23,170 nucleotides of DNA, taken from an uncultured Erysipelotrichaceae bacterium. GTDB taxonomy: Bacteria > Bacillota_I > Bacilli_A > Erysipelotrichales > Erysipelotrichaceae. Below the pieces are notes generated by a model that saw only the letters and a list, made by a program, of their open reading frames with translations, searched no databases and had not been told where the DNA came from. Positions 1,194-23,155 of this stretch are shown piece by piece. The stretch covers positions 1 through 23,170 of the forward strand of contig CAYWGS010000015.1 of the NCBI GenBank assembly GCA_964457525.1. Reading direction: 5' to 3'. Each line of letters opens with the position of its first letter. The stretch's first letter is position 1. The translations under genes and the position numbers were made by a program.

Positions 1194-1775
1194 ATGAATA
1201 AAGAAAAAGTATTAGTAGAAGTATCTGCACGTCATGTGCATGTAACAAAAGAACATTTAGAAATTTTATTTGGTCCAGGTCATGAATTAACCCCTAAAAA
1301 GGATTTATCTCAACCTGGTCAATATGCTGCAGCTGAAAGAGTTGACTTAGTTGGACCACGTTCCACAATTAAGGGTGTAAGTATTTTAGGACCATGTCGT
1401 AATGCATCTCAAGTTGAAGTATCTTTATCCGATGCACGTACATTAGGCTTAAGCGCAATGATTCGTGAATCCGGAAATATTCAAGGTACAACAGGGATTG
1501 AATTGGTTGGTCCTGCAGGTAGTGTAACATTAACTGAAGGTTTAATCGTAGCGAAACGCCATGTACACTTAACACCAGAGGCAGCTGCTGCTCAAGGTGT
1601 TACAAATGGTCAAGTTGTAAGTGTAAAGATTGAAACAGACGATCGTTCAATGACATTTGGTGACGTTGTGATTCGTGTCAGTGAAAAGTTCTCACCTGCA
1701 ATGCACATTGATACCGATGAAGCAAATGCGGCTGCTATTAGCTCCACAGCTTGGGGCGAGATTATAACAAACTAA
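1194..1775 (+). CDS. pduL: PduL-type phosphate acyltransferase (phosphate propanoyl/acetyltransferase)
   Basis: The 193-aa protein has the duplicated PduL signature: VSARHVHV at aa 10-17 and VAKRHVHLT at aa 119-127. It also has a strong RBS. Confidence 0.85.
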   Translation: MNKEKVLVEVSARHVHVTKEHLEILFGPGHELTPKKDLSQPGQYAAAERVDLVGPRSTIKGVSILGPCRNASQVEVSLSDARTLGLSAMIRESGNIQGTTGIELVGPAGSVTLTEGLIVAKRHVHLTPEAAAAQGVTNGQVVSVKIETDDRSMTFGDVVIRVSEKFSPAMHIDTDEANAAAISSTAWGEIITN

Positions 1776-1793
1776 CCGATTATTCGGTTTTTT
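1774..1793 (+). terminator. Short hairpin plus T-run (weak terminator or attenuator) between pduL and the ygiQ-like gene
   Basis: AACCGA-TTAT-TCGGTT at 1774-1789 overlaps the pduL stop codon and runs into TTTTTT (1788-1793). The stem is only 6 bp, so read-through is plausible. Confidence 0.45.
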
Positions 1794-1794
1794 A

Positions 1795-3636
1795 ATGATG
1801 ACGATGCATCCAATAAATAAAAAAGAAATGATGGAAAGAGGCTGGGATTCAGTCGATTTCGTCTTGGTAAGTGGGGATGCTTATGTCGATCATCCTTCCT
1901 TTGGTGCTGCCATCATAGCACGAGTATTAGAAGCGTATGGTTTTACGGTTGCGATATGTCCTCAACCGGATTGGAAAAAAGAGGATGATTTACTTCAATA
2001 TGGTAAACCAAATTTAGGGTATATGGTTACAGCAGGGAATATTGATTCAATGGTGAATCACTATTCTGTTAATAAAAAAAGAAGAATAAAAGATAACTAT
2101 ACGGATAATGGTGTTATGGGTAAGCGCCCAGATCGAGCAACCATTGTATATAGTCAATGGATTCGTAAAGTTATGCCAGGTGTTCCAATTATTATCGGTG
2201 GAATTGAAGCGTCACTACGTCGTTTAGCACATTATGATTATTGGGATGATACCATTCGTAATTCGATACTAATGGATTCTACAGCGGATTTACTTATTTA
2301 TGGCATGGCTGAGAATAGTGTGATCGAAGTTGCGGAAGCGATGCGATCTGGAATTGCGATTGAAGATATTACATATATCCGTGGTACAGTTTGGAAAACA
2401 AAAACCAAAGAACTACCAAGTGATGCGATTATATTACCTACTTTCGCGGAGATTAAGAAAGATAAAGATAAATTTATCGATAGTTTCGTGATTCAGTATC
2501 GTAATACCGATGCATTTACTGCTAAACCACTTGTTGAGATGGTTGGGAATGTGGCGGTCGTACAAAATAAACCAAGTTTTGCATTAAAACAAGAAGAAAT
2601 GGATTGGGTCTATGGATTACCATTTACTCGATTAATACATCCATCCTATACTGAAATTCCAGCGATAGAAGAAGTACAATTCTCACTCATCAGTAATCGT
2701 GGATGTTTCGGTTCGTGTAACTTCTGTGCACTTACTGCACATCAAGGTAGAATGATTAGTAGTCGTAGTGCTGATTCTTTGGTAGAAGAAGCGACGAAAA
2801 TCACACAGATGAATAACTTTAAAGGCTATATTCATGATGTTGGTGGACCTACGGCTAACTTTAATCAAGTTTCATGTCAGAAACAGTTAAAATATGGAAC
2901 ATGTCAAACCAAAGAATGTTTGCACCCTGAACCATGTAGACAACTTGAAGTAAGTCATTCTGCTTATCTTCAAACGTTAAGACGATTGCGTGCACTACCA
3001 AATGTTAAGAAAGTATTCGTTCGATCTGGGATTCGTTATGATTATCTCATGTATGATAAGGATGAGACATTCTTCGATGAGCTTGTTCAATATCATATCT
3101 CAGGTCAATTAAAAGTTGCGCCTGAACATATATCGGATCGAGTTCTTGATTTAATGGGAAAACCTAAACGTCAATTATATGAAGCGTTTGTAAGTAAGTA
3201 TGAAAAGAAGAATAAAGAGTTTAATAAGAATCAGTTCTTAGTTCCATATATGATTTCTTCTCATCCAGGAAGTGAGTTAAAAGATGCGATTGAATTAGCC
3301 TTGTATCTTAAGAAAATTAAGCATACTCCTCAACAAGTTCAAGATTTTTATCCAACACCATTCACAGTAAGTACATGCATGTACTATACGGAAAAGAATC
3401 CATTTACAAAAGAAAAGGTGTATGTTGCGAAGAATCCCAAAGAAAAAGCATTGCAACGTGTGTTATTACAATACACGTATCCACAGAATCAAACACTTGT
3501 ATTTGAAGCGCTTAAACAAGCCAATCGTTTGGATTTAGTTGGATTTGGTTCACACTGTTTGATTAAACCATTAAGACAAGAATCGGTGAATCGTTCTAGA
3601 GAAGTTTCAGGTAGACAACGAAAAGGAAATCATTAA
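1795..3636 (+). CDS. YgiQ-family (UPF0313) radical SAM protein
   Basis: The 613-aa protein has the N-terminal block WDSVDFVLVSGDAYVDHPSFG typical of YgiQ proteins and a radical-SAM cluster motif CFGSCNFC (C-x3-C-x2-C). The start is ambiguous among the ATGs at 1795, 1798 and 1804, and none has a Shine-Dalgarno sequence. Confidence 0.85.
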   Translation: MMTMHPINKKEMMERGWDSVDFVLVSGDAYVDHPSFGAAIIARVLEAYGFTVAICPQPDWKKEDDLLQYGKPNLGYMVTAGNIDSMVNHYSVNKKRRIKDNYTDNGVMGKRPDRATIVYSQWIRKVMPGVPIIIGGIEASLRRLAHYDYWDDTIRNSILMDSTADLLIYGMAENSVIEVAEAMRSGIAIEDITYIRGTVWKTKTKELPSDAIILPTFAEIKKDKDKFIDSFVIQYRNTDAFTAKPLVEMVGNVAVVQNKPSFALKQEEMDWVYGLPFTRLIHPSYTEIPAIEEVQFSLISNRGCFGSCNFCALTAHQGRMISSRSADSLVEEATKITQMNNFKGYIHDVGGPTANFNQVSCQKQLKYGTCQTKECLHPEPCRQLEVSHSAYLQTLRRLRALPNVKKVFVRSGIRYDYLMYDKDETFFDELVQYHISGQLKVAPEHISDRVLDLMGKPKRQLYEAFVSKYEKKNKEFNKNQFLVPYMISSHPGSELKDAIELALYLKKIKHTPQQVQDFYPTPFTVSTCMYYTEKNPFTKEKVYVAKNPKEKALQRVLLQYTYPQNQTLVFEALKQANRLDLVGFGSHCLIKPLRQESVNRSREVSGRQRKGNH

Positions 3637-3706
3637 TTGTGATGATTTAAGGATAATCTTGAATAAGCCTTTATTTTGAGCAATTAAACTATTAGAATAA
3701 ACATAT

Positions 3707-4612
3707 ATGCGACACATCTTTATTATCAATCCAAAGTCTGGAAACAAACAGGCAGTAACGTATATTCCACTCATCGAGGACTATTTTAAATCGAATCCAA
3801 ATGATTTTGAAGTACTGTTAACTGAATATCCAGGACACGCAACAGAACTCGCAAGGAAGTATACAAAAGAAGATGGAGTTTGTGTCTATTCTCTTAGTGG
3901 AGATGGTACAGCAAACGAAGTATTAAATGGATTGAATGAAGGTGTTACACTAGCAATTTTACCGCTTGGGACAGGTAATGATTTTACTCGTATGTTTCAA
4001 GTTCCTGAAATGTCAATGGAACGATTGATTATAGAAACAATTGAAGGCAAAGAATGTTTAGTGGACTATGGGATGTCCAATTACCGTAAGTTCTTGAACT
4101 GTTCAACTATGGGATTAGATGCGGATATTGGAATCTTGGCACATGAATGGAAAATGAAATACCCATTCTTAGGAAGTTTCTCTTATATTATCGCTATCTT
4201 TCCTTTGTTAATTCATCGTAAACCACTTGAATTCACTGTGAGAATGGATGATAAAACCTTTAAGGTAAAATCTCTCTTAACAGCGGTTATGAATGGACAA
4301 TTCTATGGAGGTGGTTTTATTCCGACTCCCATGGCATCCATTCAAGATGGTTATTTAGATTTATGTATTATTCAAGATACCAATTTACTCAGAATATTGA
4401 CCTTATTACCACGTTATAAAAAGGGATTGCATATCAATGAAGATATTGTAAGTTTCTATAAGGTTAAGAAGTTCAATCTTGTTAGTGAAAGAGAAATAAG
4501 TACGCAGTGTGATGGAGAAGTATATCCTGAGATTGAGATTGATTTTAGGATTGTAGAGAAAGGGCTTAGACTAAGAGTTCCAAAAGAAAGCTTGTTGGAG
4601 GAAGCACCATGA
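3707..4612 (+). CDS. Diacylglycerol-kinase-family lipid kinase (YegS/BmrU/DagK-like)
   Basis: The 301-aa protein has the DAGK catalytic-domain motifs SGDGTANEVLNG and PLGTGNDF. Its stop overlaps the next start (ATGA at 4609-4612). Confidence 0.85.
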   Translation: MRHIFIINPKSGNKQAVTYIPLIEDYFKSNPNDFEVLLTEYPGHATELARKYTKEDGVCVYSLSGDGTANEVLNGLNEGVTLAILPLGTGNDFTRMFQVPEMSMERLIIETIEGKECLVDYGMSNYRKFLNCSTMGLDADIGILAHEWKMKYPFLGSFSYIIAIFPLLIHRKPLEFTVRMDDKTFKVKSLLTAVMNGQFYGGGFIPTPMASIQDGYLDLCIIQDTNLLRILTLLPRYKKGLHINEDIVSFYKVKKFNLVSEREISTQCDGEVYPEIEIDFRIVEKGLRLRVPKESLLEEAP

Positions 4613-9209: not shown

Positions 9210-10061
9210 ATGAAGGGATATGCAAGTTTAGTTAAACCGTATATCTTATGGATGTCGTTGTTTATCGTAGTGCCAATGTTATTAATTGTTCTCTATGCAT
9301 TTACTGAACATGGTAACTCTTTGATGGCATTTCGATTCACTCTCGATAACTTCATGCGTTTCTTTGATCCTGTATTTATTAAAGTATTATTCAAGTCATT
9401 AGAAGTTGCGATTATTACAACCGTTCTCTGTATTATTATTGGTTATCCTATTGCTTACATCATTTCTAATACAAGTGAAAGAGCACAAACGTTACTTATC
9501 TTGTTAATTACATTGCCAATGTGGATTAATATGCTTGTTCGTACTTATGCTTGGATTAGTATCTTATCCGATGGTGGTATCTTAAATTCTATCTTACAGT
9601 TCTTTGGTTTTGAACCAATTAAGATGATGTATACCGATTTTGCAGTTATGTTAGGGATGGTCTACAACTTCCTACCGTTTATGATTATCTCAATTTATAC
9701 CGTATTAGCAAAATTGGATCGTGCATTAATTCATGCTAGTCATGACTTAGGGGCGAATCCTATACAAACATTCTTAAGAATAGTACTTCCATTATCGATG
9801 CCTGGTGTTATTTCAGGGATTACCCTTGTATTCTTACCAGCGGTTAGTACCTTCGTCATTCCTAAGTTCTTAGGTGGTGGTCAGTACATGTTAATTGGTA
9901 ACTTGATTGAAAACCAATTTATTACAGTCGGTGAATGGAACTTCGGTAGTGCAATTTCACTTATTATGGTGATTATTATTATGGGTTCTATGATTTTAAC
10001 TCGTAAGATTGATCGTGATGCGTCTGACACTGCTAGTGTAGAAGGAGGTAAGCTATGGTAG
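9210..10061 (+). CDS. potB: Spermidine/putrescine ABC transporter permease
   Basis: The 283-aa polytopic protein has the EAA-type loop (HASHDLGANPIQTFLRIVLP). It starts 1 nt after the potA stop. Confidence 0.88.
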   Translation: MKGYASLVKPYILWMSLFIVVPMLLIVLYAFTEHGNSLMAFRFTLDNFMRFFDPVFIKVLFKSLEVAIITTVLCIIIGYPIAYIISNTSERAQTLLILLITLPMWINMLVRTYAWISILSDGGILNSILQFFGFEPIKMMYTDFAVMLGMVYNFLPFMIISIYTVLAKLDRALIHASHDLGANPIQTFLRIVLPLSMPGVISGITLVFLPAVSTFVIPKFLGGGQYMLIGNLIENQFITVGEWNFGSAISLIMVIIIMGSMILTRKIDRDASDTASVEGGKLW

Positions 10062-10855
10062 GGATTAAAAAACATAACTATATTAAGTTCTTTACCTTAT
10101 TCTTAGTCTTAAGCTTCTTCTATTTGCCAATTCTAAGTTTGATGATCTTCTCATTTAATGATTCGAGATCATTAACATCCTGGTCTGGTTTCTCTCTTCA
10201 ATGGTATCAAGCTTTATTTGAAAACAGAGAAATGATGACAGCGATTACCACGACGATTACGATTGCGTTAGTATCTACAGCAGTTGCGACGGTTATGGGA
10301 ACACTTGCGGCGATTGGTATTTCTAAATCACGTCGTTTGATTAAGGAACTTGTATTAAGTGTAAACAACTTTCCAATCCTTAATCCTGAAATTGTTACGG
10401 CGATTGGACTCATGTTGTTGTATTCTTCACTGAATGTTGAGAAGGGTTTTGTGACAATGTTGCTCGCTCATATCATCTTCAGTACACCCTATGTTATTCT
10501 AAGCGTATTACCTCGTTTAAGACGTTTAGACCCAGATATTGCGGAAGCAGCACTTGATTTAGGGGCAACTCCTTTACAAGCGTTGTGGAAGGTTATTGTG
10601 CCTATGATTATGCCTGGGATTGTATCCGGTGCACTCATTGCGTTTACAATGTCATTTGATGACTTCGTTATCTCTTACTTTGTAAGTGGTAATGGGGTTA
10701 AGAATATCTCTATCTTAGTGTATACGATGTCGAAACGTATTAATCCTACGATTAATGCATTATCTACAATCCTCGTCGTAATTATTACGATTGTATTATT
10801 GGTGGTAAATCTTTACCCTTATGTAGCCAAGAAAGAAATTAAGGAGGCAGAATGA
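10055..10855 (+). CDS. potC: Spermidine/putrescine ABC transporter permease
   Basis: The 266-aa polytopic protein has the EAA loop (EAALDLGATPLQALWKVIVP). It overlaps potB by 7 nt. Confidence 0.88.
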   Translation: MVGIKKHNYIKFFTLFLVLSFFYLPILSLMIFSFNDSRSLTSWSGFSLQWYQALFENREMMTAITTTITIALVSTAVATVMGTLAAIGISKSRRLIKELVLSVNNFPILNPEIVTAIGLMLLYSSLNVEKGFVTMLLAHIIFSTPYVILSVLPRLRRLDPDIAEAALDLGATPLQALWKVIVPMIMPGIVSGALIAFTMSFDDFVISYFVSGNGVKNISILVYTMSKRINPTINALSTILVVIITIVLLVVNLYPYVAKKEIKEAE

Positions 10856-11886
10856 AAAAATTAAGTATGCTAATCCTTGTCTTAGCATTTATGCTAGCAG
10901 GATGCAACAGTGAAACAAAAACATTAAAGGTATTTAACTGGGGTGTGTATATGGACTCAACCCTCATCGATGAATTTGAAGAAGAATACAACGTTAGAGT
11001 TGTTTATGATGAGTTTGATAGTAATGAATCCATGTATACAAAACTCATGAGTGGGGAGAAGTATGATGTGATTGTGCCATCGGATTATATGGTGCAACGT
11101 TTAATTGAAGAAAATCAATTACAAAAATTGGATAAGAGTGTTGTTAGTTTAGACAATGTTTTGCCAAATGTATTGAATCAAAGTTTTGATCCAAACAATG
11201 AATACAGTGCGCCTTACTTCTGGGGCAATGTTGGATTAATCTACGATACAACGCAAGTTGATGTAAATGATTTAAATGAAGGATGGAATGTTTTACTCAA
11301 TCCTAAATATAAAGGGAAGATTTACTTCTATGATTCAGAGCGTGATGCATTCTTGGTTGCGCTAAAAGCGTTAGGCTATTCCGCTAATACAAAAGTCGAT
11401 AGTCAACTCAATGAAGCATTTGATTGGCTTTCACAACTCAATACTACAATGGAACCAATTTATGTGACAGATGATGTTATTGATAATATGATTGCTGGAA
11501 ATAAAGCGATTGCAGTGGTTTACTCCGGTGATGCGGCTTATATTTTAGATGAAAATGAAGATATGGCATTCTATGTCCCTGAAGAAGGAACAAATATGTG
11601 GGTTGATAGTATGGTTATTCCTGCCAATGCTGATAATCCTGAACTTGCAAATGCTTGGATTCAATTTATGTTAAGTGAAGATGCTCAAACACGTAATACA
11701 CTTGAAGTAGGTTATTCTACTGTACATAAAGACGTTTGGGAAGCAATGATTTCAGATGAAGGGGATTATGCGGGTAATGAAGCGTATTCTGTTCGTCAAG
11801 GAAATTCAAAAGATGAAATATTTAAATATGACGAAGAGCTTAAAGTCAAAATGTCTGATTTATGGTTAAAAATTAAAGCTCAGTAA
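10852..11886 (+). CDS. potD: Polyamine-binding lipoprotein PotD, paralog 1
   Basis: The 344-aa protein has a lipobox (LAGC at aa 15-18) and PotD blocks (NWGVY, VPSDYM, PYFWG, PEEGTNMWVDSMVIPANA). It overlaps potC by ATGA. Confidence 0.88.
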   Translation: MKKLSMLILVLAFMLAGCNSETKTLKVFNWGVYMDSTLIDEFEEEYNVRVVYDEFDSNESMYTKLMSGEKYDVIVPSDYMVQRLIEENQLQKLDKSVVSLDNVLPNVLNQSFDPNNEYSAPYFWGNVGLIYDTTQVDVNDLNEGWNVLLNPKYKGKIYFYDSERDAFLVALKALGYSANTKVDSQLNEAFDWLSQLNTTMEPIYVTDDVIDNMIAGNKAIAVVYSGDAAYILDENEDMAFYVPEEGTNMWVDSMVIPANADNPELANAWIQFMLSEDAQTRNTLEVGYSTVHKDVWEAMISDEGDYAGNEAYSVRQGNSKDEIFKYDEELKVKMSDLWLKIKAQ

Positions 11887-11894
11887 GGAAATAA

Positions 11895-12938
11895 ATGAAA
11901 AAATTACTTTTATTAAGTTTAATTGCAGTATTTGCTCTTGTAGGTTGTTCTACAGCTGAAAAGAAGGTTTTAAAAGTCTATAACTGGGGTGCTTATATCG
12001 ACGAAACAGTTATTTCTGAATTTGAAGATAAGTATGATGTACGAGTTATTTATGACAACTACGATTCTAATGAATTAATGTATACCAAAATTCAAAGTGG
12101 AGAATACTACGATATCTTAGTTCCAACCGATCACATGGTTGAACGTTTAATTGCGGAAGATTTCTTACAACCACTTGATTTATCACTTATCCCTAATCTA
12201 TCAAATGTATATCCTGATTTACTCAATCGTCCATTTGATCCAAATAATGCTTACAGTGTCCCTTATTTCTGGGGTAACATTGGTATTATCTACAACACTC
12301 AAAACGTTGATGTGGCTGATTTAGAAGCAGAAGGATGGGATGTTTTAAAGAATCCTAAGTATGCAGATCGAATTTATATCTATGACTCAGCACGTGATGC
12401 ATTCATGGTTGCTCAAAAAGCGTTAGGTTATTCAGTTAATACAACAGATGAAGCAGAGATCGAAGCAGCATTTGAATGGTTAAAAGACATGAATAGTACA
12501 ACTCGTCCTATTTACATCGATGAAACCATCATTGACAACATGATTACTGAACAAAAAGACTTAGCAGTAGATTTCTCTGGTGATGCAGCTTATGTTATTT
12601 CTCAAAATCCAAATATGTCATTTTATGTTCCTGAAGAAGGTACTAATGTTTGGATGGATAGTATGATTATTCCTGCGAATGCTAAAGAAGTTGATTTAGC
12701 ACACAAATGGATCAACTTTATGTTAGAAAATGAAGTTGCGCTTAAGAATACCATTTATGTTGGTTATACTTCTCCTGTGAAATCTGCATTTGAAACAGTT
12801 ACAGGTGCAGGTGGCGATTATGAAGGTAATGTAGCGTATGCGCCTCGTATGGATAATCCATTGGATGAAGTGTATCAATACAATGATGCGTTGAAAGAAG
12901 TCTTAACAGACAAATGGACACGCGTTAAAGCACAATAG
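11895..12938 (+). CDS. potD: Polyamine-binding lipoprotein PotD, paralog 2
   Basis: The 347-aa protein has a lipobox (LVGC). It is collinear with paralog 1 along its whole length (roughly half to 60% identity by eye) and shares the C-terminal KAQ. Confidence 0.88.
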   Translation: MKKLLLLSLIAVFALVGCSTAEKKVLKVYNWGAYIDETVISEFEDKYDVRVIYDNYDSNELMYTKIQSGEYYDILVPTDHMVERLIAEDFLQPLDLSLIPNLSNVYPDLLNRPFDPNNAYSVPYFWGNIGIIYNTQNVDVADLEAEGWDVLKNPKYADRIYIYDSARDAFMVAQKALGYSVNTTDEAEIEAAFEWLKDMNSTTRPIYIDETIIDNMITEQKDLAVDFSGDAAYVISQNPNMSFYVPEEGTNVWMDSMIIPANAKEVDLAHKWINFMLENEVALKNTIYVGYTSPVKSAFETVTGAGGDYEGNVAYAPRMDNPLDEVYQYNDALKEVLTDKWTRVKAQ

Positions 12939-13118: not shown

Positions 13119-13192
13119 GGTTCCTTAGCCAAGTGGTAAGGCAATAGACTGCAACTCTGTGACCGTCGGTTCAAATCCGACAGGAACCTCCA
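13119..13192 (+). tRNA. tRNA-Cys (GCA)
   Basis: The 74-nt cloverleaf was folded by hand. It has acceptor GGTTCCT/AGGAACC, anticodon loop CTGCAAC, T-arm GTCGG-TTCAAAT-CCGAC and an encoded CCA. Confidence 0.9.
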
Positions 13193-13194
13193 AT

Positions 13195-13281
13195 GGGGAT
13201 GTGGCGGAATAGGCAGACGCAACGGACTTAAAATCCGTTGATGGCAACATCGTGTGGGTTCAAGTCCCACCATCCCCACCA
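13195..13281 (+). tRNA. tRNA-Leu (TAA)
   Basis: The 87-nt class II tRNA has acceptor GGGGATG/CATCCCC, anticodon loop CTTAAAA and a long variable arm (GATG-GCAA-CATC). Its T-arm is GTGGG-TTCAAGT-CCCAC and CCA is encoded. Confidence 0.9.
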
Positions 13282-13325
13282 TTGCATGTTTCAGAGAAGA
13301 TTTTGGTGCCTTATACTTAGACTTT

Positions 13326-13402
13326 GCGCCTATAGCTCAATTGGATAGAGCGTTTGACTACGGATCAAAAGGTTGTGGGTTCGACTCCTGCTAGGCGCGC
13401 CA
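13326..13402 (+). tRNA. tRNA-Arg (ACG)
   Basis: The 77-nt tRNA has acceptor GCGCCTA/TAGGCGC, anticodon stem TTTGA/TCAAA with loop CTACGGA, and an encoded CCA. Confidence 0.9.
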
Positions 13403-13411
13403 TAAAAAACT

Positions 13412-13488
13412 CGGGATGTAGCACAGCTTGGTAGTGCACTTGATTTGGGATCAAGGGGTCGCAGGTTCGAATCCTGTCATCCCGACCA
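13412..13488 (+). tRNA. tRNA-Pro (TGG)
   Basis: The 77-nt tRNA has acceptor CGGGATG/CATCCCG, anticodon loop TTTGGGA, T-arm GCAGG-TTCGAAT-CCTGT and an encoded CCA. Confidence 0.9.
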
Positions 13489-13506
13489 TGCAATTTTTTA
13501 TTTTAC

Positions 13507-13583
13507 GGCGGGATAGCTCAGTTGGCTAGAGCAATCGGTTCATACCCGGTCGGTCGTGAGTTCGAGTCTCACTCCCGCTACCA
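13507..13583 (+). tRNA. tRNA-Met (CAT), elongator type
   Basis: The 77-nt tRNA has acceptor GGCGGGA/TCCCGCT (G1-U72), anticodon loop TTCATAC and an encoded CCA. It lacks both the initiator hallmarks and the C4-G69/C5-G68 pairs, so I assign it as elongator Met. Confidence 0.7.
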
Positions 13584-13587
13584 ATTT

Positions 13588-13664
13588 GGACCCTTAGCTC
13601 AGTTGGTTAGAGCTGCCGGCTCATAACCGGTAGGTCGTAGGTTCGAGTCCTACAGGGTCCACCA
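13588..13664 (+). tRNA. tRNA-Ile2 (CAT, lysidine-modified type)
   Basis: The 77-nt tRNA has acceptor GGACCCT/AGGGTCC with C4-G69 and C5-G68, the TilS determinants described for E. coli tRNA-Ile2. The anticodon loop is CTCATAA. It strongly resembles the Bacillus tRNA-Ile(CAU) as I recall it. Confidence 0.65.
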
Positions 13665-13672
13665 CTTTATAT

Positions 13673-13761
13673 GGAGGAATACCCAAGCGGTTTAAGGGAC
13701 TAGTCTTGAAAACTAGCAGATGTGAGAGCATGCGTGGGTTCGAATCCCACTTCCTCCGCCA
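13673..13761 (+). tRNA. tRNA-Ser (TGA)
   Basis: The 89-nt class II tRNA has acceptor GGAGGAA/TTCCTCC, anticodon loop CTTGAAA, a long variable arm and an encoded CCA. Confidence 0.9.
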
Positions 13762-13794
13762 TATCGCTTATTTCTAAATTTATATATTATACAT

Positions 13795-13871
<77 letters not shown>

Positions 13872-13874
13872 AAT

Positions 13875-13950
<76 letters not shown>

Positions 13951-16976: not shown

Positions 16977-16997
16977 TTAAAAAGAGCTTTCGCTCTT
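16977..16997 (-). terminator. Rho-independent terminator of the TetR gene
   Basis: AAGAGC-TTTC-GCTCTT at 16982-16997 overlaps the minus-strand stop codon. On the minus strand it is followed by a T-run. Confidence 0.7.
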
Positions 16998-17601
16998 ATT
17001 TTGCATGGTTTCTGATATAGGTAGGAATACTTTGGGCAAAGAAATTAACAAATGTATTTTTAAAGCCTTCATCATTAATATCTAAAACACCTAAGGAGTA
17101 TTGTAAGGCAATACCATCGAGGGCAGCTACTAGGATTGTCGCAATCTGTTTCTGACAGGTTTCATTCTCTACCCCAAAGGCATAAAAATAAAGTTTAGCG
17201 ACTTTATCAATAATCTCCTTATAATCGAGTCGATATTTCTCTTTAATGCGTCCACCCTTACTAATGGCATAGGCTGTTAATAGAATTAAGAGTCGTTGTT
17301 CGATTTCTTTTGACATACGACTACGAACATTATTGCTTATTTCATCAAACATCGCTTGGTTTGATTTTATGTTACTATCTTTATCTTTCTCTGAGAGTTT
17401 ATGTACGAAATAAGCAGATTCTTTTACTGCGTCATAGTATAGATCATCTTTGTTTTTGTAGTGATAGTAAATCGCTCCGGTCGTAAGACCTGCATTTGCG
17501 GCTATTTCTCGCATACTTGCTTTTTCAAATCCTTGGGTCGCAAAGACATGGAGTGCTGCATCTAGGAGTTGTTTCTTAATATCGTTTGTTACTTCTGGCA
17601 T
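16996..17601 (-). CDS. TetR/AcrR-family transcriptional regulator
   Basis: The N-terminal HTH is FEKASMREIAANAGLTTGAIYYHYKNKDDL. I trimmed ORF 16996..17628 to the ATG at 17599-17601 (MPEVTND...), which has a GAGGT sequence 7 nt upstream. Confidence 0.88.
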   Translation of the reverse strand: MPEVTNDIKKQLLDAALHVFATQGFEKASMREIAANAGLTTGAIYYHYKNKDDLYYDAVKESAYFVHKLSEKDKDSNIKSNQAMFDEISNNVRSRMSKEIEQRLLILLTAYAISKGGRIKEKYRLDYKEIIDKVAKLYFYAFGVENETCQKQIATILVAALDGIALQYSLGVLDINDEGFKNTFVNFFAQSIPTYIRNHAK

Positions 17602-17674
17602 AGTTTGACCTCGATTAAAGTGTATCATAATTCACACTTTACATAAAATACTAACTTGTTTATTCATTCACATA

Positions 17675-17703
17675 TTGTAACATAACAATCGTTATGTTAA
17701 TAT
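17675..17703 (+). promoter_or_regulatory. Candidate sigma-A promoter of the hypB operon (extended -10)
   Basis: TTGTAA (17675-17680), a 17-nt spacer and TGtTAATAT (17695-17703). On the opposite strand, TGtTACAAT (17682-17674) is a candidate -10 for the divergent TetR gene. Confidence 0.55.
17678..17699. promoter_or_regulatory. Perfect palindromic operator candidate (TetR-type)
   Basis: TAACATAAC-AATC-GTTATGTTA has 9-bp perfect arms and a 4-bp spacer. It fills the space between the -35 and -10 of the hypB-operon promoter. Confidence 0.6.
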
Positions 17704-17741
17704 TATCACAACTATAGTGAATGTTCACAGAAAGAGTGTTT

Positions 17742-18410
17742 ATGACGGAGTTTAAAATTCTAACCATTAAAGAAAGTGTATTTAAAAACAACAATGAACG
17801 TGCCGATTTACTCAGAACAAGCTTAAAGAAAGATAAACGATTTCTATTAAACTTGATGTCATCTCCTGGATCAGGTAAGACGACGACTTTAACTCAAACG
17901 ATCAATCGATTGAAAGATGAAATGAAGATTGGGGTTATGGAAGCAGATATTGATTCGGATGTCGATGCACATACAATCTCAAAGACTGGAGTAAAGGTTA
18001 TCCAACTTCATACAGGTGGCATGTGTCACTTGGATGCGGATATGACGAAACAAGGTTTAGATGGATTAGGTGTGGATGAATGTGATTTGGTTATTCTAGA
18101 GAATGTGGGTAATCTTGTGTGTCCAGCAGAGTTTGATACTGGCGCAAGTAAGAATGCGATGATTTTGAGTGTTCCTGAAGGGGATGATAAACCACTTAAG
18201 TATCCATTGATGTTCTCAATTTGTGAAGTATTACTTATTAATAAGATTGATGTGATGGATGTGTTTGATTTTAATTTGGAACTTTGTATCGAGAGAGTAA
18301 AAAAGATTAATCCGAATATAAAAATTATCCCTATCTCCGCAAGAACAGGTGAGGGAATTGATGAATTTGCGAATTGGCTCAGAACAGAAGTAAGAAACTG
18401 GAAAATGTAA
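17742..18410 (+). CDS. hypB: Hydrogenase/urease-type nickel incorporation GTPase HypB
   Basis: Walker A (SSPGSGKTT), the CH metal motif (GGMCHLD), ENVGNLVCPAEFD and the G4 motif NKID are present. The start is taken at MTEFKILT (17742), and the upstream in-frame ATG at 17721 is the alternative. Confidence 0.88.
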   Translation: MTEFKILTIKESVFKNNNERADLLRTSLKKDKRFLLNLMSSPGSGKTTTLTQTINRLKDEMKIGVMEADIDSDVDAHTISKTGVKVIQLHTGGMCHLDADMTKQGLDGLGVDECDLVILENVGNLVCPAEFDTGASKNAMILSVPEGDDKPLKYPLMFSICEVLLINKIDVMDVFDFNLELCIERVKKINPNIKIIPISARTGEGIDEFANWLRTEVRNWKM

Positions 18411-18411
18411 T

Positions 18412-21102
18412 ATGGAAAATCAACAAGTTAAATTAAAAGTACTTGAATTTGCGAATAAAGTTAGTAATAAAAAAATGGGTTCTAAAGGAGCGATTACTGC
18501 AAGTGATCCACGTTATTACATCATGGAACCGGTTGTGAGTGATGAGATGGCTGAAGTCGCATTAGTGATGGAATTTAGAAAACCATTGAGTGCAGAAGAG
18601 TTATCAAAAAGATGTGGGAAATCACTTGAGTTAACTGAGAAACTTTGTTGGGAATTATCCCTCGCTGGTGTTTGTTTTGTGAATAAAAAAGATGGTGTTG
18701 ATAAGTATTGGTATGACACATGGGTTCCAGGCATTATGGAAATGATGTGTAACAATCTTGAGAATGTTCGTAAGTATCCTCAAATTGCGAAAGCATTTGA
18801 AGAATATGGACGAGTTGTTGGACCCATGTCAGTCGGTAAATTCCCAATTGGGGTAGGTGTTATGCGTGTTATTCCAATCGAAACTGCGATTCAAGGTGAA
18901 ACACGTAAAGCGTCGTATGAAGAAGTTTCTAAATATTTGAATGAAGCGAAGATATTCACAGTATCGGATTGTTCATGTCGTACATCACGTGAGGCAATCG
19001 GTGAGGGTTGTGGTCACTTAAAAGAAGATATGTGTATTCAATTGGATCATGCGGCAGAATATTACATACGTACGGGTCGTGGCAAACAAATAACCCGTGA
19101 AGAAGCGTTTGAAATCATTCGAAGAGCGGAAGAAAATGGCTTGATGCATCAAATACCGAACTTAGATGGTTCTGGTAAAACACATGCGATTTGTAATTGT
19201 TGTGGATGTTCATGTTATGCATTGCGTATCGCGTCCATGTTCAAGAATTCGGATATGGTTCGATCGAATTATGTTGCGCATGTCGATTCAGAGAAATGTG
19301 TAGCATGTGGTCAATGTGTTGAAAATTGTCCGACTAATGCGGTTAAGTTAGGTCAAAAATTAGGCACAATCAATCCAATCAAACAAGCTAAAATTGAAAC
19401 TCCACGTGATATGAAATGGGGTCCTGAGAAGTTTAATCCTGATTATCGCACCAATCGTAAGGATGTTGTGGATAGTGGAACAAGTCCATGTAAAACAGAA
19501 TGTCCGGCACATATTGCGGTACAAGGTTATATTCAATTAGCGGCTCAAGGTAAATATAAAGAAGCGTTACAACTCATTAAACATGAAAATCCTTTCCCAG
19601 CAGTTTGTGGACGTATCTGTCCACGTAAATGTGAATCCGCATGTACACGTTGTGAGATTGATAAAGCGGTCGCAATTGATGAGATTAAGAAGTTCATTGC
19701 GGACCAAGAATTGAATAGTGATACACGTTATGTTCCTAAATTAAGACATCAATATGGCAAGAAGATTGCGATTATTGGGGCAGGTCCTGCTGGATTATCT
19801 TGTGCTTATTATCTTGCGATTGATGGTTATAAAGTAACTGTATTTGAGAAACAAGAAAAACTCGGTGGTATGTTAACCCTTGGTATTCCAAACTACCGTT
19901 TAGAGAAAGATGTCGTGAATGCGGAAATTGATATCTTAAAAGAATTGGGTGTTGAATTTAAGACAGGTGTTGAAGTTGGTAAAGATATTACTCTTGATGA
20001 ATTGCGTAATCAAGATTATAAAGCATTCTATGTTGCGATTGGGGCTCAAAAGGGTCGTAAGTTAAACATCGAAGGTGAAGATCATGAAGATGTTGTATCT
20101 GGAGTCGATTTCTTACGTCAAGTTAATCTAGGGAATGCTAAGAGCCTTGACGGTAATGTGGTTGTCATCGGTGGTGGTAATGTCGCAATTGATGTAGCAC
20201 GTACAGCAGTTCGTTTAGGCGCAGCTAAAGTAGATATGGTTTGTTTAGAAAGTCGTGAAACCATGCCTGCACTCGATGAAGAAATTCATGAAGCACTCGA
20301 TGAAAATGTATCTATTAATAACTCATGGGGCCCAAAACGTATTGTGATTGAAAACAATAAAGTAGTGGGTGTTGAGTTTAAAAAATGTATTTCAGTACTC
20401 GATGAAAACAATCGTTTTAATCCAAAATACGATGAGAATAATACGATTATTATCCCTGCATCTCATGTATTAATCTCAGTTGGTCAAGCCATTGATTGGG
20501 GAAATCTCTTAGATAATACTGAAGCTGAGTTTAATCCTAATAAGACATTATGTGCTGATGGATTTACCTATCAAACCAATCATAAAGATATCTTTACAGG
20601 GGGAGATTGTTATACTGGACCACGTTTTGCGATTGATGCGATTGCGGCAGGTAAACAAGCTGCGATATCCATTCATCGCTATGTACAACCTGGACAAAGC
20701 TTGGTCTTAGGACGTGATCGTCGTGAGTATATTGCGATTGATAAAGAGAATCTTGATTTACAAGGCTATGATCGTATACCTAGAGAAAGTGTTAAACATA
20801 ACTATAAAACATCGGGTTCTGAAGCGTTTAAAGATGGTCGTTTAACCTTTACCGAAGCACAACTTAAGAAGGAAACTGAAAGATGTTTAGGTTGTGGGGC
20901 AGCGGTTGTGGATGAGTACATGTGTGTTGGTTGTGGACAATGTACAACTAAATGTAAGTTCGATGCGATTAGTTTAGTTCGTACCTATGATTCTAAAGGC
21001 GCTGGATATGAAGAGTTGAAACCACTTGTATTAAAACAGATCGTTTCGCGTGAAGTTAAAATCATTTCAAAGAATATTAAGAATGTCTTTGTGAAAGAAT
21101 AA
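18412..21102 (+). CDS. Multidomain Fe-S flavoprotein of unknown function
   Basis: The 896-aa protein has these parts:
- aa 187-268 carry 9 Cys (DCSCR, GCGH, CNCCGCSC).
- aa 296-306 are CVACGQCVENCP.
- aa 360-414 form the Cys-rich GltD N-domain (CKTECP...CGRICPRKCESACTRC).
- aa 451-459 are the FAD site KIAIIGAGPAG.
- aa 583-590 are the NAD(P)H site VVVIGGGN.
- aa 825-848 are CLGCG...CVGCGQCTTKC.
The gene starts 1 nt after the hypB stop. Confidence 0.8.
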   Translation: MENQQVKLKVLEFANKVSNKKMGSKGAITASDPRYYIMEPVVSDEMAEVALVMEFRKPLSAEELSKRCGKSLELTEKLCWELSLAGVCFVNKKDGVDKYWYDTWVPGIMEMMCNNLENVRKYPQIAKAFEEYGRVVGPMSVGKFPIGVGVMRVIPIETAIQGETRKASYEEVSKYLNEAKIFTVSDCSCRTSREAIGEGCGHLKEDMCIQLDHAAEYYIRTGRGKQITREEAFEIIRRAEENGLMHQIPNLDGSGKTHAICNCCGCSCYALRIASMFKNSDMVRSNYVAHVDSEKCVACGQCVENCPTNAVKLGQKLGTINPIKQAKIETPRDMKWGPEKFNPDYRTNRKDVVDSGTSPCKTECPAHIAVQGYIQLAAQGKYKEALQLIKHENPFPAVCGRICPRKCESACTRCEIDKAVAIDEIKKFIADQELNSDTRYVPKLRHQYGKKIAIIGAGPAGLSCAYYLAIDGYKVTVFEKQEKLGGMLTLGIPNYRLEKDVVNAEIDILKELGVEFKTGVEVGKDITLDELRNQDYKAFYVAIGAQKGRKLNIEGEDHEDVVSGVDFLRQVNLGNAKSLDGNVVVIGGGNVAIDVARTAVRLGAAKVDMVCLESRETMPALDEEIHEALDENVSINNSWGPKRIVIENNKVVGVEFKKCISVLDENNRFNPKYDENNTIIIPASHVLISVGQAIDWGNLLDNTEAEFNPNKTLCADGFTYQTNHKDIFTGGDCYTGPRFAIDAIAAGKQAAISIHRYVQPGQSLVLGRDRREYIAIDKENLDLQGYDRIPRESVKHNYKTSGSEAFKDGRLTFTEAQLKKETERCLGCGAAVVDEYMCVGCGQCTTKCKFDAISLVRTYDSKGAGYEELKPLVLKQIVSREVKIISKNIKNVFVKE

Positions 21103-21105
21103 CGT

Positions 21106-21447
21106 ATGCATGAATTAGGTGTTGTCATAGAGGTTGTTAAGACATTGGATAAAATTGTGCTAGAAAACAATCTTACAGAAGTCGAATCGATTGTATTACA
21201 AATTGGGGAAATATCATCCATGATTCCAAAGTACATTGAAGATTGTTTCGATGTGGCAATTGATGGAACACAGTTTGAGAAGACGAAGTTAAGAATTGAA
21301 ATACTTACGGCAACCGCATTGTGTCGACCATGTCATAAAGTGTTTAAACTGGTTGAGAATGAAGGCAAGTGTGATTGTTGTGGAGGAAATGATTGGGAAC
21401 TCTTAAGTGGGAAAGAGTTCCTAATCAAAGAGATTGTCGCAAGGTAG
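21106..21447 (+). CDS. hypA: Nickel metallochaperone HypA
   Basis: The 113-aa protein has the N-terminal MHE nickel-binding motif (MHELGV) and a zinc site (CRPC ... CDCC). It starts 3 nt after the preceding stop. Confidence 0.88.
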   Translation: MHELGVVIEVVKTLDKIVLENNLTEVESIVLQIGEISSMIPKYIEDCFDVAIDGTQFEKTKLRIEILTATALCRPCHKVFKLVENEGKCDCCGGNDWELLSGKEFLIKEIVAR

Positions 21448-21453
21448 GAAATT

Positions 21454-22146
21454 ATGACTGAATTAAATACATTATTATATACTGCATTTTTTATTGGAAC
21501 TGTTCACACTTTAATTGGTGTCGATCATTATTTACCATTCGTTGTTTTATCCAAATCAAATAAATGGTCAATTAAAAAGACAATGATGATTGTCTTTGTG
21601 TGTGGAATAGGCCATGTATTAAGTTCCATAATATTAGGTTTTGTAGGATTAGGTATTAGTTCAAGTTTAAGTACACTTGTAGGAATTGAAGATATAAGAG
21701 GTACTTTTGCGACGTATTTCATCATTGTTTTTGGTTTAGTTTATACCATTTATGCTTTACGTAAGCTCTATCTCAATAAACCACATACTCATATCGTAAA
21801 TGGTCAAGAAATAATCCATGATCATCATGAACCTAAGAGTATTGAGGATCATGTTCATAAGAATAATAATCTGGTATGGGGATTATTTATCTTATTTGTA
21901 TTAGGTCCTTGTGAACCTCTTATTCCAATCTTAATGTATCCTGCCGCAACATTAAATTTAGGTGCACTTATCAGTGTAACCCTTGTCTTTAGCGTTAGTA
22001 CCATTAGTATGATGATTGGGTTAACCTATTTAGGAGTTAAAGGTTTAGATTTTATTAAGATTAAGCATTTAGAAAAGTATGGTGAAACATTAGCGGGTTT
22101 GGCGATTACATTGTGTGGTGTCTTAATGATTACCATGGGAATATAG
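21454..22146 (+). CDS. HupE/UreJ-like (or NicO-like) secondary Ni/Co transporter with a His-rich loop
   Basis: The 230-aa protein has about 6 TM segments. TM1 carries the motif HTLIGVDH, which fits the HupE/UreJ H-x3-G-x-DH pattern. The central loop (aa 109-136) has 7 His (KPHTHIVNGQEIIHDHHEPKSIEDHVHK), and the second half has GPCEP. Confidence 0.6.
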   Translation: MTELNTLLYTAFFIGTVHTLIGVDHYLPFVVLSKSNKWSIKKTMMIVFVCGIGHVLSSIILGFVGLGISSSLSTLVGIEDIRGTFATYFIIVFGLVYTIYALRKLYLNKPHTHIVNGQEIIHDHHEPKSIEDHVHKNNNLVWGLFILFVLGPCEPLIPILMYPAATLNLGALISVTLVFSVSTISMMIGLTYLGVKGLDFIKIKHLEKYGETLAGLAITLCGVLMITMGI

Positions 22147-22168: not shown

Positions 22169-23155
22169 ATGTTTGTTTTTAACACTTTAGAGGGTGGAAA
22201 CTTTCTAGCCGCATTTAGTATGTGGATTGTTGTGTTTGTTTGTCTATTCGTCTTTAATGAAGTTGCACGACGTTTTAAATGGATGGGTTTCTTTAGTTTT
22301 GTGGTTTTACCTGTCATTCTTACGATCATTTGGTTTACAGTGATGAAAGAGACGACCTATACGGATTGGTTTCATCTTGCGAAGGTTTATTCCGCAACGG
22401 CAGGATCCATTGGTTTCTGGCTTATTCGTCATTATGAGAAAAAAGATAAATCTGGAAATGTTGTTTGGAGACTTGCGACCAATAAAATCGCATTGTGCTT
22501 TCCTCCTCTTATCTTAGCCATCAATATTTTAGAAGCAGTAGCACGTGATATCGAAGTTGGTTCAACTTTCTGGATGATCAACTCTGGTGCGATTGAAGGT
22601 GAAATTATGGGTGTCTTAGGTGGCCCATGGAATTACATGAATGCGATTGCGGGTATCTTAAATATCATTACGATTACAGGTTGGTTTGGAATTGTGATTC
22701 GTAAGATGTCAGATAAAGATAAAAGTCGTGATATGTTGTGGCCAGATATGTTGTGGTTTTGGATCTTAGCTTATGATATCTGGAACTTTGTCTATACTTA
22801 TAACTGTATTCCAACACATTCATGGTATGCAGGATTAGCTTTATTAATCGCTCCAACACTTTGTGCATTTACTGTTGGTAAAGGGGCTTGGCTCCAACAT
22901 CGTGCCGCAACACTCGCAATATGGTGTATGTTCGCTCAAACTTTCCCATTATTTCAAGATACAGGGAAGTTTATGGTTAGCTCATCCTATAATCCAACTA
23001 TTTATACCATCTTAGGTGCGTTATCCTTATTGGTAAATCTTGCGGTATTTGTTTACATGATTATGAAATTTAAACAAACTAAACGTAATCCATATAAAGC
23101 AGAACTCTATGTGGATCATTCAGAATACAAAGCAATTAAAGCTCTAGCAGAATAA
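22169..23155 (+). CDS. Polytopic membrane protein of unknown function (about 9 TM segments, Trp-rich)
   Basis: The 328-aa protein has a GGGAGGA RBS 6-7 nt upstream. It has nine hydrophobic segments and 16 Trp. I recognise no catalytic or transport motif. It is the last visible gene of the hypB operon, 22 nt after the permease. Confidence 0.8.
   Translation: MFVFNTLEGGNFLAAFSMWIVVFVCLFVFNEVARRFKWMGFFSFVVLPVILTIIWFTVMKETTYTDWFHLAKVYSATAGSIGFWLIRHYEKKDKSGNVVWRLATNKIALCFPPLILAINILEAVARDIEVGSTFWMINSGAIEGEIMGVLGGPWNYMNAIAGILNIITITGWFGIVIRKMSDKDKSRDMLWPDMLWFWILAYDIWNFVYTYNCIPTHSWYAGLALLIAPTLCAFTVGKGAWLQHRAATLAIWCMFAQTFPLFQDTGKFMVSSSYNPTIYTILGALSLLVNLAVFVYMIMKFKQTKRNPYKAELYVDHSEYKAIKALAE

Follow-up and report, generated by a model that had tools for sequence, protein, structure and literature searches.

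Genes and domains at the locus

This study examined a 23,170-nt stretch of DNA from an uncultured Erysipelotrichaceae bacterium (GenBank assembly GCA_964457525.1, contig CAYWGS010000015.1, positions 1 to 23,170; hereafter the window), in which an 896-aa iron-sulfur (Fe-S) flavoenzyme is encoded between genes for the nickel maturation proteins HypB and HypA. An original prediction, made from the sequence alone, had described a Cys-rich module fused to a GltD-like reductase and had speculated that an embedded Cys-Gly-Cys motif binds nickel. The enzyme belongs to a family that includes the putative isoprene reductase IsrA, and both the family and the nickel hypothesis were already published in 2023 (PMC10134865); the window does not reveal them. 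The present analysis adds that the family falls into two signature classes and that its linkage to nickel chaperone genes is independent of the Cys-Gly-Cys motif and of His202. The genes concerned are as follows, with the evidence for each in brackets.

16996..17628, minus strand: gene of a TetR-family regulator, divergent from the operon (Pfam TetR_N, E = 3e-16)
17721..18410, plus strand: hypB, nickel-inserting GTPase with a P-loop (GSGKTT) and a CH...C motif (TIGR00073, 253.6 bits against a cut-off of 121.2)
18412..21102, plus strand: enzyme open reading frame (ORF), 896 aa, IsrA-family (clade 9) Fe-S flavoenzyme of class A (ORF and domain matches)
21106..21447, plus strand: hypA, nickel metallochaperone with an MHE N-terminus and a CxxC...CxCC zinc site (Pfam HypA, 97.6 bits)
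21454..22146, plus strand: DsbD_2-like membrane protein with the His-rich loop HTHIVNGQEIIHDHHEPKSIEDHVH (Pfam DsbD_2, E = 1e-6)
22169..23155, plus strand: DUF5692 integral membrane protein (Pfam DUF5692, E = 3e-115)

The hypB stop codon is separated from the ATG of the enzyme gene by 1 nt and the enzyme gene from hypA by 3 nt. The gene spacing of 1-22 nt therefore indicates a single operon. Neither a hydrogenase large-subunit gene nor hypCDEF was found in the window, and no such family recurs in the 80 related genome loci described below; the same applies to a gene for a GltB-, NfnA-, or PreA-type partner subunit. Within the enzyme, six segments were distinguished.

18412..18831, plus strand, aa 1-140: winged-helix-like N-terminal domain (AlphaFold model, weak Foldseek and profile matches)
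18832..19281, plus strand, aa 141-290: Cys-rich sub-domain, presumed catalytic metal site (conservation)
19297..19332, plus strand, aa 296-307: first half of a split 2x[4Fe-4S] ferredoxin domain, CxxCxxCxxxCP, CVACGQCVENCP (Pfam Fer4, 290-311)
19480..19719, plus strand, aa 357-436: Fer4_20, two [4Fe-4S] clusters of the DPD/GltD/NfnB type (PF14691, E = 3e-24)
19762..20652, plus strand, aa 451-747: FAD/NAD(P)H part, Pyr_redox_2 (PF07992, E = 1e-30)
20884..20955, plus strand, aa 825-848: C-terminal half of the split ferredoxin domain and two extra Cys, CxxC plus CxxCxxCxxxC (Cys conservation)

The Fer4, Fer4_20, and Pyr_redox_2 matches, together with the C-terminal cluster motif, confirmed the four-part architecture that had been read from the sequence, including its GltD-like reductase. 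All the motifs listed in that reading were also recovered in this protein, which contains 35 Cys: DCSCR at aa 186-190, GCGH at aa 199-202 followed by C208, and H258-x2-CNCCGCSC with the octet at aa 261-268, the total between residues 187 and 268 being nine Cys. Only the spacer between DCSCR and GCGH required correction, as it comprises eight residues and not nine. The dinucleotide motifs GAGPAG and GGGN occupy positions 456-461 and 587-590, and the C-terminal cluster motif reads CLGCG-x9-CVGCGQCTTKC (aa 825-848), with a weak Pfam match to Fer4_21 at aa 831-855. The best NCBIfam model was PRK12771 (span 334-867), whose score of 480.5 bits lay under the cut-off of 516; the enzyme was far under every cut-off of the NCBIfam equivalog models. 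Comparison of 73 full-length sequences from related genome loci revealed that the Fer4_20 cysteines C360, C364, C399, C403, C407, and C411 are invariant, as are six of the six Cys of the C-terminal motif.

Codon 318 (window 19363-19365) specifies Gly in the window and Cys in 67 of the 73 orthologues and in most distant fusions. Gly, Tyr, His, or Asp occurs at this position only in an Erysipelotrichales-like lineage (loci L001, L002, L003, L005, and L016). Where it is present, Cys318 may contribute, with the invariant C825 and C828, to an extra metal site, which this lineage would have lost.

The N-terminal module (N-module) was compared with sequence and structure collections. No Pfam family and no PDB sequence covers aa 1-285, and searches of Pfam, NCBIfam, and PDB sequences with aa 1-340 returned a generic Fer4 motif and nothing else; a characterized Fe-S family, whose discovery was to have spoken against nickel, was not found in these three collections. 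An AlphaFold model of aa 1-340 (mean predicted local distance difference test score [pLDDT] 78.6, exceeding 90 over most of aa 11-130 and 170-250) placed an alpha/beta Cys-rich domain after a winged-helix-like one; the ferredoxin-motif region, aa 286-319, was disordered with low pLDDT in this model, which was built without the C-terminus. The earlier suggestion of a winged-helix-like N-terminus agrees with the high confidence over aa 11-130, and the matches to winged helix-turn-helix (wHTH) folds are weak. Foldseek comparison of the whole N-module model with the PDB gave wHTH matches only; the E values from Foldseek and the PDB profile search were 4e-3 to 5e-2. The N-module profile matched the winged-helix entry 2d1h weakly and yielded nothing past such weak wHTH matches among the PDB sequences. 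The winged-helix-like domain probably has a structural role.

For the Cys-rich part, a separate model of aa 141-295 (core pLDDT above 90) gave a best Foldseek E value of 0.98 and TM scores of at most 0.26 against the PDB, and hence no solved fold. Acetyl-CoA synthase (ACS), carbon monoxide dehydrogenase (CODH), HdrB, and ferredoxin:thioredoxin reductase were considered as relatives of this domain and were ruled out by the blank Foldseek and profile results.

Relatives and the two signature classes

A scan of one genome per species detected relatives in at least 510 genomes. The best 80 loci, with N-module identities of 71-95%, were kept, and their neighboring genes were called by using tblastn and ORF clustering. 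These loci include Clostridium sporogenes, C. botulinum, Metaclostridioides mangenotii, Romboutsia, and Tissierella, as well as metagenome-assembled genomes (MAGs) of Anaerolineae, Treponema/Sphaerochaeta, and Izemoplasmatales. The flanking of the enzyme gene by hypB and hypA, first noted in the window, proved to be conserved: hypB lies directly upstream in approximately 72 of the 80 genome loci, and hypA lies directly downstream in approximately 73 of them and in 75 of the 86 metagenome loci that were informative. The hypB-enzyme-hypA order, seen in approximately 70 of the 80 genome loci, spans Bacillota, Chloroflexota, Spirochaetota, one Deltaproteobacteria MAG, and Izemoplasmatales. DUF5692 was found in 50/80 genome loci, and a regulator is usual, either of a family of approximately 237 aa with a GntR-like N-terminus by eye (32/80) or of the TetR type (approximately 20/80). 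No second enzyme family recurred near the gene in the 80 genome loci.

Across the 73 full-length sequences, conservation is highest in the Cys-rich sub-domain, whose median identity to the window protein is 82%, compared with 71% for the flavin domain. The nine Cys and H202 are retained in 72 of these sequences, the CNCCGCSC motif including Gly265 is retained in 72/73 close orthologues, and R190, H246, and N262 are invariant. Because relatives occur in more than 500 species genomes and the nine Cys with H202 are kept in 72 of 73 sequences, the observation is far above chance.

A profile search of 1.84 billion representative sequences identified 2,983 clusters carrying the N-module, in two architectures: fusions of approximately 880-945 aa and stand-alone proteins of approximately 320-390 aa with a complete 2x[4Fe-4S] ferredoxin domain. 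The latter, in which the octet reads CNCCxCCC, bear out the original caveat that similar Cys modules occur in stand-alone Fe-S proteins. The genome loci encode uninterrupted ORFs of approximately 896 aa throughout. In a word-indexed protein search, all 120 matches listed (P0005 among them) were of at most 570 aa, and some of them lay on very long contigs, such as a 549-aa protein of Aminipila terrae on a 3.5-Mb record; these short matches could be truncated gene calls, pseudogenes, or an effect of the database. The full-length sequences were drawn from the genome loci and from the profile search of representatives. An in-frame selenocysteine codon was suspected behind the matches of 500-570 aa; the idea was dropped, the ORFs of the genome loci being uninterrupted.

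We then compared the signature positions of the fusion proteins over 88 loci (80 metagenome loci and eight fetched individually). Six cysteines, C187, C189, C208, C261, C263, and C268 (hereafter Cys6), are universal in the fusions and in the stand-alone sequences examined. The remaining positions define two classes, a split that is new in the present analysis. In class A (23 of 88 loci), residue 200 is Cys, residue 202 is His, and residues 264 and 266 are Cys. In class B (65 of 88 loci), residue 200 is mostly Cys and otherwise Thr, Ser, Gly, or Tyr; residue 202 is Asp or Glu; and no Cys is present at 264 or 266. H202, C264, and C266 always change together, none of the 88 loci being mixed. Gly265 is found in only 32 of 50 sequences of the wider class A set. 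The window protein and 72 of the 73 genome-locus sequences belong to class A, and DUF5692 and both TetR and GntR-like regulators were seen with both classes.

Among the informative loci, hypA is nearby in 19/22 of class A and 56/64 of class B, and hypB in 16/22 and 35/64, respectively. The linkage to hypA is thus indifferent to C264, C266, and H202, and a family-wide nickel site therefore cannot be the Cys-Gly-Cys motif. If nickel is inserted, the universal Cys6 is the better candidate site.

The stand-alone ferredoxins, which include the ferredoxin of the isr operon described below, contain a homologous winged-helix and Cys-rich module (24-32% identity) and lack the flavoprotein part. C187, C189, C200, C208, C261, C263, C264, and C268 are invariant in them, residue 267 is usually Cys, and position 202 is variable, whereas all fusions have His, Asp, or Glu there; position 202 is therefore a candidate for a residue specific to the catalytic, chaperone-linked enzymes. 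The second ferredoxin motif directly follows the first in the stand-alone proteins, whereas the equivalent motif of the fusions lies at 838-848. Together with the low pLDDT of the first motif when the C-terminus is left out, this supports a ferredoxin domain whose two halves lie far apart in the chain, as the published IsrA model also has it.

The stand-alone proteins also bear on the Cys-Gly-Cys motif. Their equivalents of the accessory positions are C200, C264, C266, and C267, and this covariation suggests that the Cys-Gly-Cys is probably part of an accessory 3Cys+His site (C200, H202, C264, and C266). The simplest reading of the alignments would be one accessory cluster site in three states, namely four Cys in the stand-alone proteins, 3Cys+His in class A, and lost in class B; this site likely relays electrons to the Cys6 center. 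No hypA was found near the three stand-alone proteins examined, one of which has a cobW-type gene nearby, and their contexts are acyl-CoA metabolism genes; the published stand-alone ferredoxin group likewise shows no HypA/HypB association (PMC10134865).

Several loci deviate from the usual arrangements. In locus L091 (4676-6428), a stand-alone N-module ferredoxin gene has as neighbors another N-module paralogue and, in convergent orientation, a cobW/HypB-like gene of 229 aa, and some stand-alone forms may also be metallated by a G3E GTPase. The Oscillospiraceae MAG locus L009 carries two paralogues, at 1293-4052 and 10001-12679: a class A copy with hypA downstream and a 919-aa class-B-like copy without an adjoining hyp gene, the latter with Ala, Asp, Met, Pro, and Gly at positions 200, 202, 264, 265, and 266. 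A tandem pair of cobW/HypB-type GTPase genes stands beside hypA in the class B loci L085 (8820-10469), L106, L107, L119, L122, and L123. The class B ORFs of L139, L142, L148, L162, and L174, from human-gut metagenomes, measured 1035-1151 aa by crude ORF calling, which could reflect an N-terminal extension or an artefact of an upstream in-frame start.

IsrA and the proposed nickel center

IsrA (VUZ27132.1), an FAD-dependent oxidoreductase with 901 aa from Acetobacterium wieringae ISORED-2, was described as a putative isoprene reductase (PMC10134865). Isoprene induces it along with two HypA, one HypB, and one ferredoxin, and it is among the most abundant induced proteins (PMC10134865). Its clade 9 homologues can be aligned along their full length, and the frequencies of neighbors among 988 homologues were 0.73 for HypA, 0.56 for HypB, 0.4 for DUF5692, and 0.21 for TetR (PMC10134865). 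Four canonical [4Fe-4S] sites were assigned to IsrA, with a fifth, the Cys6 "cluster V," containing two CxC motifs (C180/C182 and C254/C256); cluster V was suggested as a nickel binder and was likened to the ACS A-cluster, the P-cluster, or double cubanes (PMC10134865).

One class B protein in our set, that of L095, has 901 aa, CxC motifs at 180-182 and 254-256, a ferredoxin motif from 289, a 26-residue insertion, and hypA directly downstream. These features are those of the published IsrA description, and IsrA-type enzymes would therefore be class B; we take the L095 protein as IsrA-type on four grounds, namely length, residue numbering, the insertion, and the hypA gene downstream. The N-module Cys of such enzymes are the universal six, which explains the published "Cys6." Over 885 aa, the window and L095 proteins share 51% identity.

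The window protein is a clade 9 homologue of IsrA: it aligns along essentially the whole of the IsrA-type sequence of about 900 aa, has the Cys6 with two CxC motifs, and is encoded next to hypA and hypB. It shares with IsrA the overall architecture, the split ferredoxin motifs, Fer4_20, and the FAD/NAD(P) domain, and its TetR and DUF5692 genes match the neighbors of other clade 9 members. It nevertheless lies outside the IsrA subclade proper. That subclade (cluster I), which comprises A. wieringae ISORED-2, strain Y, and Pelotomaculum, has a five-gene isr operon of isrA, hypA, hypB, an N-module ferredoxin gene, and a second hypA; the window operon, in contrast, runs hypB-enzyme-hypA-DsbD_2-like-DUF5692 with a divergent TetR gene, has one hypA, and lacks an N-module ferredoxin gene. 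The 26-residue insertion of the IsrA/Pelotomaculum subclade was found only in the L095 and L082 proteins and is absent from the window protein, in which C200, H202, C264, and C266 stand in place of the Gly, Asp, His, and Ser of the IsrA type.

On the basis of these findings, we propose that the window enzyme is a class A IsrA-like NAD(P)H-dependent Fe-S flavoenzyme of a TetR-controlled operon, in which electrons would pass from NAD(P)H through FAD and the clusters to a Cys6 nickel center that is loaded by HypB and HypA and reduces a small molecule. We assign this reading a probability of roughly 0.55. NAD(P)H would reduce the FAD (aa 451-747), and electrons would then move to the two Fer4_20 clusters (aa 357-436) and on to the 2x[4Fe-4S] ferredoxin domain that aa 296-306 and aa 838-848 form together. 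In class A, they would next cross the accessory 3Cys+His site (C200, H202, C264, and C266) and end at the Cys6 metal center (C187, C189, C208, C261, C263, and C268), the presumed site of small-molecule reduction. The NAD(P)H-driven electron delivery to the N-terminal module that had been predicted is the natural reading of the NAD(P)H, FAD, and Fe-S domains. HypB and HypA most likely would insert nickel at the Cys6 center, and by analogy with the proposal for IsrA and isoprene, the reaction may be the reduction of a C=C bond. In [NiFe]-hydrogenase maturation, nickel is handled by the same kinds of protein as those encoded in the window operon, namely a HypA with its MHE terminus and zinc site and a HypB, a G3E GTPase with the CH...C motif. 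The flanking chaperone genes thus suggest a new kind of nickel enzyme, probably one that does not bind nickel through the Cys-Gly-Cys.

A more specific proposal, which we put forward tentatively as somewhat less than an even chance, is that of a new Ni-Fe-S cofactor on a fold with no solved relative, held by the universal Cys6 together with His or an acidic residue at position 202 and needing no maturation proteins other than HypA and HypB; class A would add the 3Cys+His relay, and its substrate would not be isoprene.

Several points weigh against a nickel center of this kind. The searchable literature up to 2026 contains no biochemistry or structure of the family, and two 2026 preprints still regard IsrA as uncharacterized. 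The cluster assignments follow from motif logic and covariation. The window HypA missed the cut-off of TIGR00100 (70.2 against 88.1), though it was well above that of Pfam, and no hyp genes were seen near P0135, a distant member of class A. The Cys6 is kept in the stand-alone proteins, of which the three examined had no hypA nearby, so the site can probably exist without nickel chaperones. Acetobacterium strains that have homologues without isrA fail to reduce isoprene (PMC10134865); because strains with such homologues do not reduce it, the substrate of the window enzyme is probably not that of IsrA.

The enzyme might alternatively contain Fe-S clusters and FAD only, with HypA and HypB serving a nickel enzyme elsewhere in the genome or handling another metal. 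No metal analysis of a family member appeared in the literature searched, stand-alone proteins with the same Cys6 are mostly without hyp neighbors, and all ten conserved Cys/His ligands could in principle go to Fe-S clusters. Such an arrangement would, however, leave the tight hypB-enzyme-hypA order across phyla and in both classes to be accounted for, as hydrogenase, urease, and CODH genes do not recur in the 80 loci. Furthermore, a [NiFe]-hydrogenase and hypCDEF are both missing from A. wieringae ISORED-2, whose other nickel enzymes have maturases of their own, and isoprene co-induces hypA, hypB, and isrA (PMC10134865). We regard an enzyme free of nickel as unlikely, though far from negligible.

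The ACS-like nickel site at C264/C266, as the original prediction had it, fared less well. The motif is kept with its Gly265 in 72/73 close orthologues, HypA and HypB flank the gene, and the four Cys at 187-208 with the later CxC loosely recall the ACS ligand pattern. The window enzyme may also share with the Ni-Ni-[4Fe-4S] A-cluster a Cys-rich site near a possible cubane, a Cys-x-Cys, and a dependence on nickel chaperones. Its N-module nevertheless shows no sequence or fold similarity to ACS in PDB profile or Foldseek searches, and its chaperones are HypA and HypB as opposed to AcsF and CooC. A strict ACS-type Cys-Gly-Cys is not found across the family, since the Gly varies in the wider class A set and both Cys are gone from the 65 class B enzymes. 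These enzymes, the IsrA-type protein among them, also lack H202 and yet retain hypA in 56/64 and hypB in 35/64 loci. In addition, stand-alone relatives have Cys264/266/267 and the three examined had no hypA nearby, to which an ordinary Fe-S ligand set is the better fit. A nickel site at the Cys-Gly-Cys is accordingly improbable.

The C-terminal two thirds of the enzyme are of the GltD/NfnB/PRK12771 type, with Fer4_20 and nested FAD/NAD(P)H domains. Proteins of this type are usually partnered and stand-alone N-module proteins resemble electron carriers, so the enzyme could be an electron-input subunit for a separate catalytic partner, with the N-module as an extra ferredoxin-like relay. GltD, NfnB, and DPD-domain-II proteins, however, lack the extra 290-residue N-module, and the window enzyme misses the PRK12771 cut-off, is flanked by nickel chaperone genes, and has no GltB or NfnA partner. 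No conserved partner enzyme gene was found in the 80 genome loci or the 88 metagenome loci, the N-module is conserved above the flavin domain, and the invariant non-ligand polar residues R190, H246, and N262 would be unusual in a simple relay. We consider an input subunit to be quite improbable. It is scarcely credible that the winged helix binds DNA and that the protein serves as a redox-sensing transcription factor. The winged-helix matches that favor this are weak (E of 4e-3 upward), a TetR or GntR regulator and a conserved operator belong to the operon itself, an 896-aa NAD(P)H/FAD multi-cluster chain exceeds the needs of a sensor, and IsrA is highly abundant when induced (PMC10134865).

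If the proposed nickel center is real, the enzyme would represent a new, NAD(P)H-driven nickel enzyme class that is widespread in gut and sediment anaerobes. To our knowledge, only a handful of nickel enzyme types exist. A family in more than 500 species genomes, tied to HypA and HypB without a nearby hydrogenase, would add a further type and might explain the anaerobic hydrogenation of unactivated C=C bonds. The independence of the chaperone linkage from the Cys-Gly-Cys and His202 redirects mutagenesis and spectroscopy to the universal Cys6.

Candidate operator and flanking genes

The intergenic region between the TetR gene and hypB contains one further feature.

17678..17699, no strand: perfect 9-bp inverted repeat TAACATAAC-n4-GTTATGTTA, candidate TetR operator (overlaps the promoter-like site 17677-17706)

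The promoter-like site that it overlaps is the sole one in this intergenic region. The palindrome core, AACATAAC-n4-GTTATGTT, is kept in the corresponding region of nine of the ten TetR-bearing loci, which range from Erysipelotrichales MAGs to C. sporogenes and C. botulinum. This conservation suggests that the repeat is likely the TetR operator; the inducer of the operon is probably a small molecule that acts through TetR. The conserved operator, also added by the present analysis, offers a route to the inducer and thence to the substrate in cultivable hosts such as C. sporogenes.

Downstream of hypA, the DsbD_2-like protein carries H-x5-DH at its N-terminus in addition to its His-rich loop. 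Among the 80 genome loci, its gene was found only in the five nearest (L001-L005), and it matched no NCBIfam model. The protein may be a metal transporter, possibly for nickel. At relaxed thresholds, neither this protein nor the DUF5692 protein gave an informative family or PDB match. In the literature searched, DUF5692 appears only in the study by Kronen et al. (2023) on the IsrA family (PMC10134865). The DUF5692 protein has many invariant polar residues, namely N30, E31, R34, K72, R87, E122, R126, D188, D193, K238, Q243, H244, and R245, and may be a substrate transporter or an enzyme.

Elsewhere in the window, an array of nine tRNA genes at 13119-13947 occupies an ORF-free gap between ABC-transporter genes and a TMEM164-family gene.

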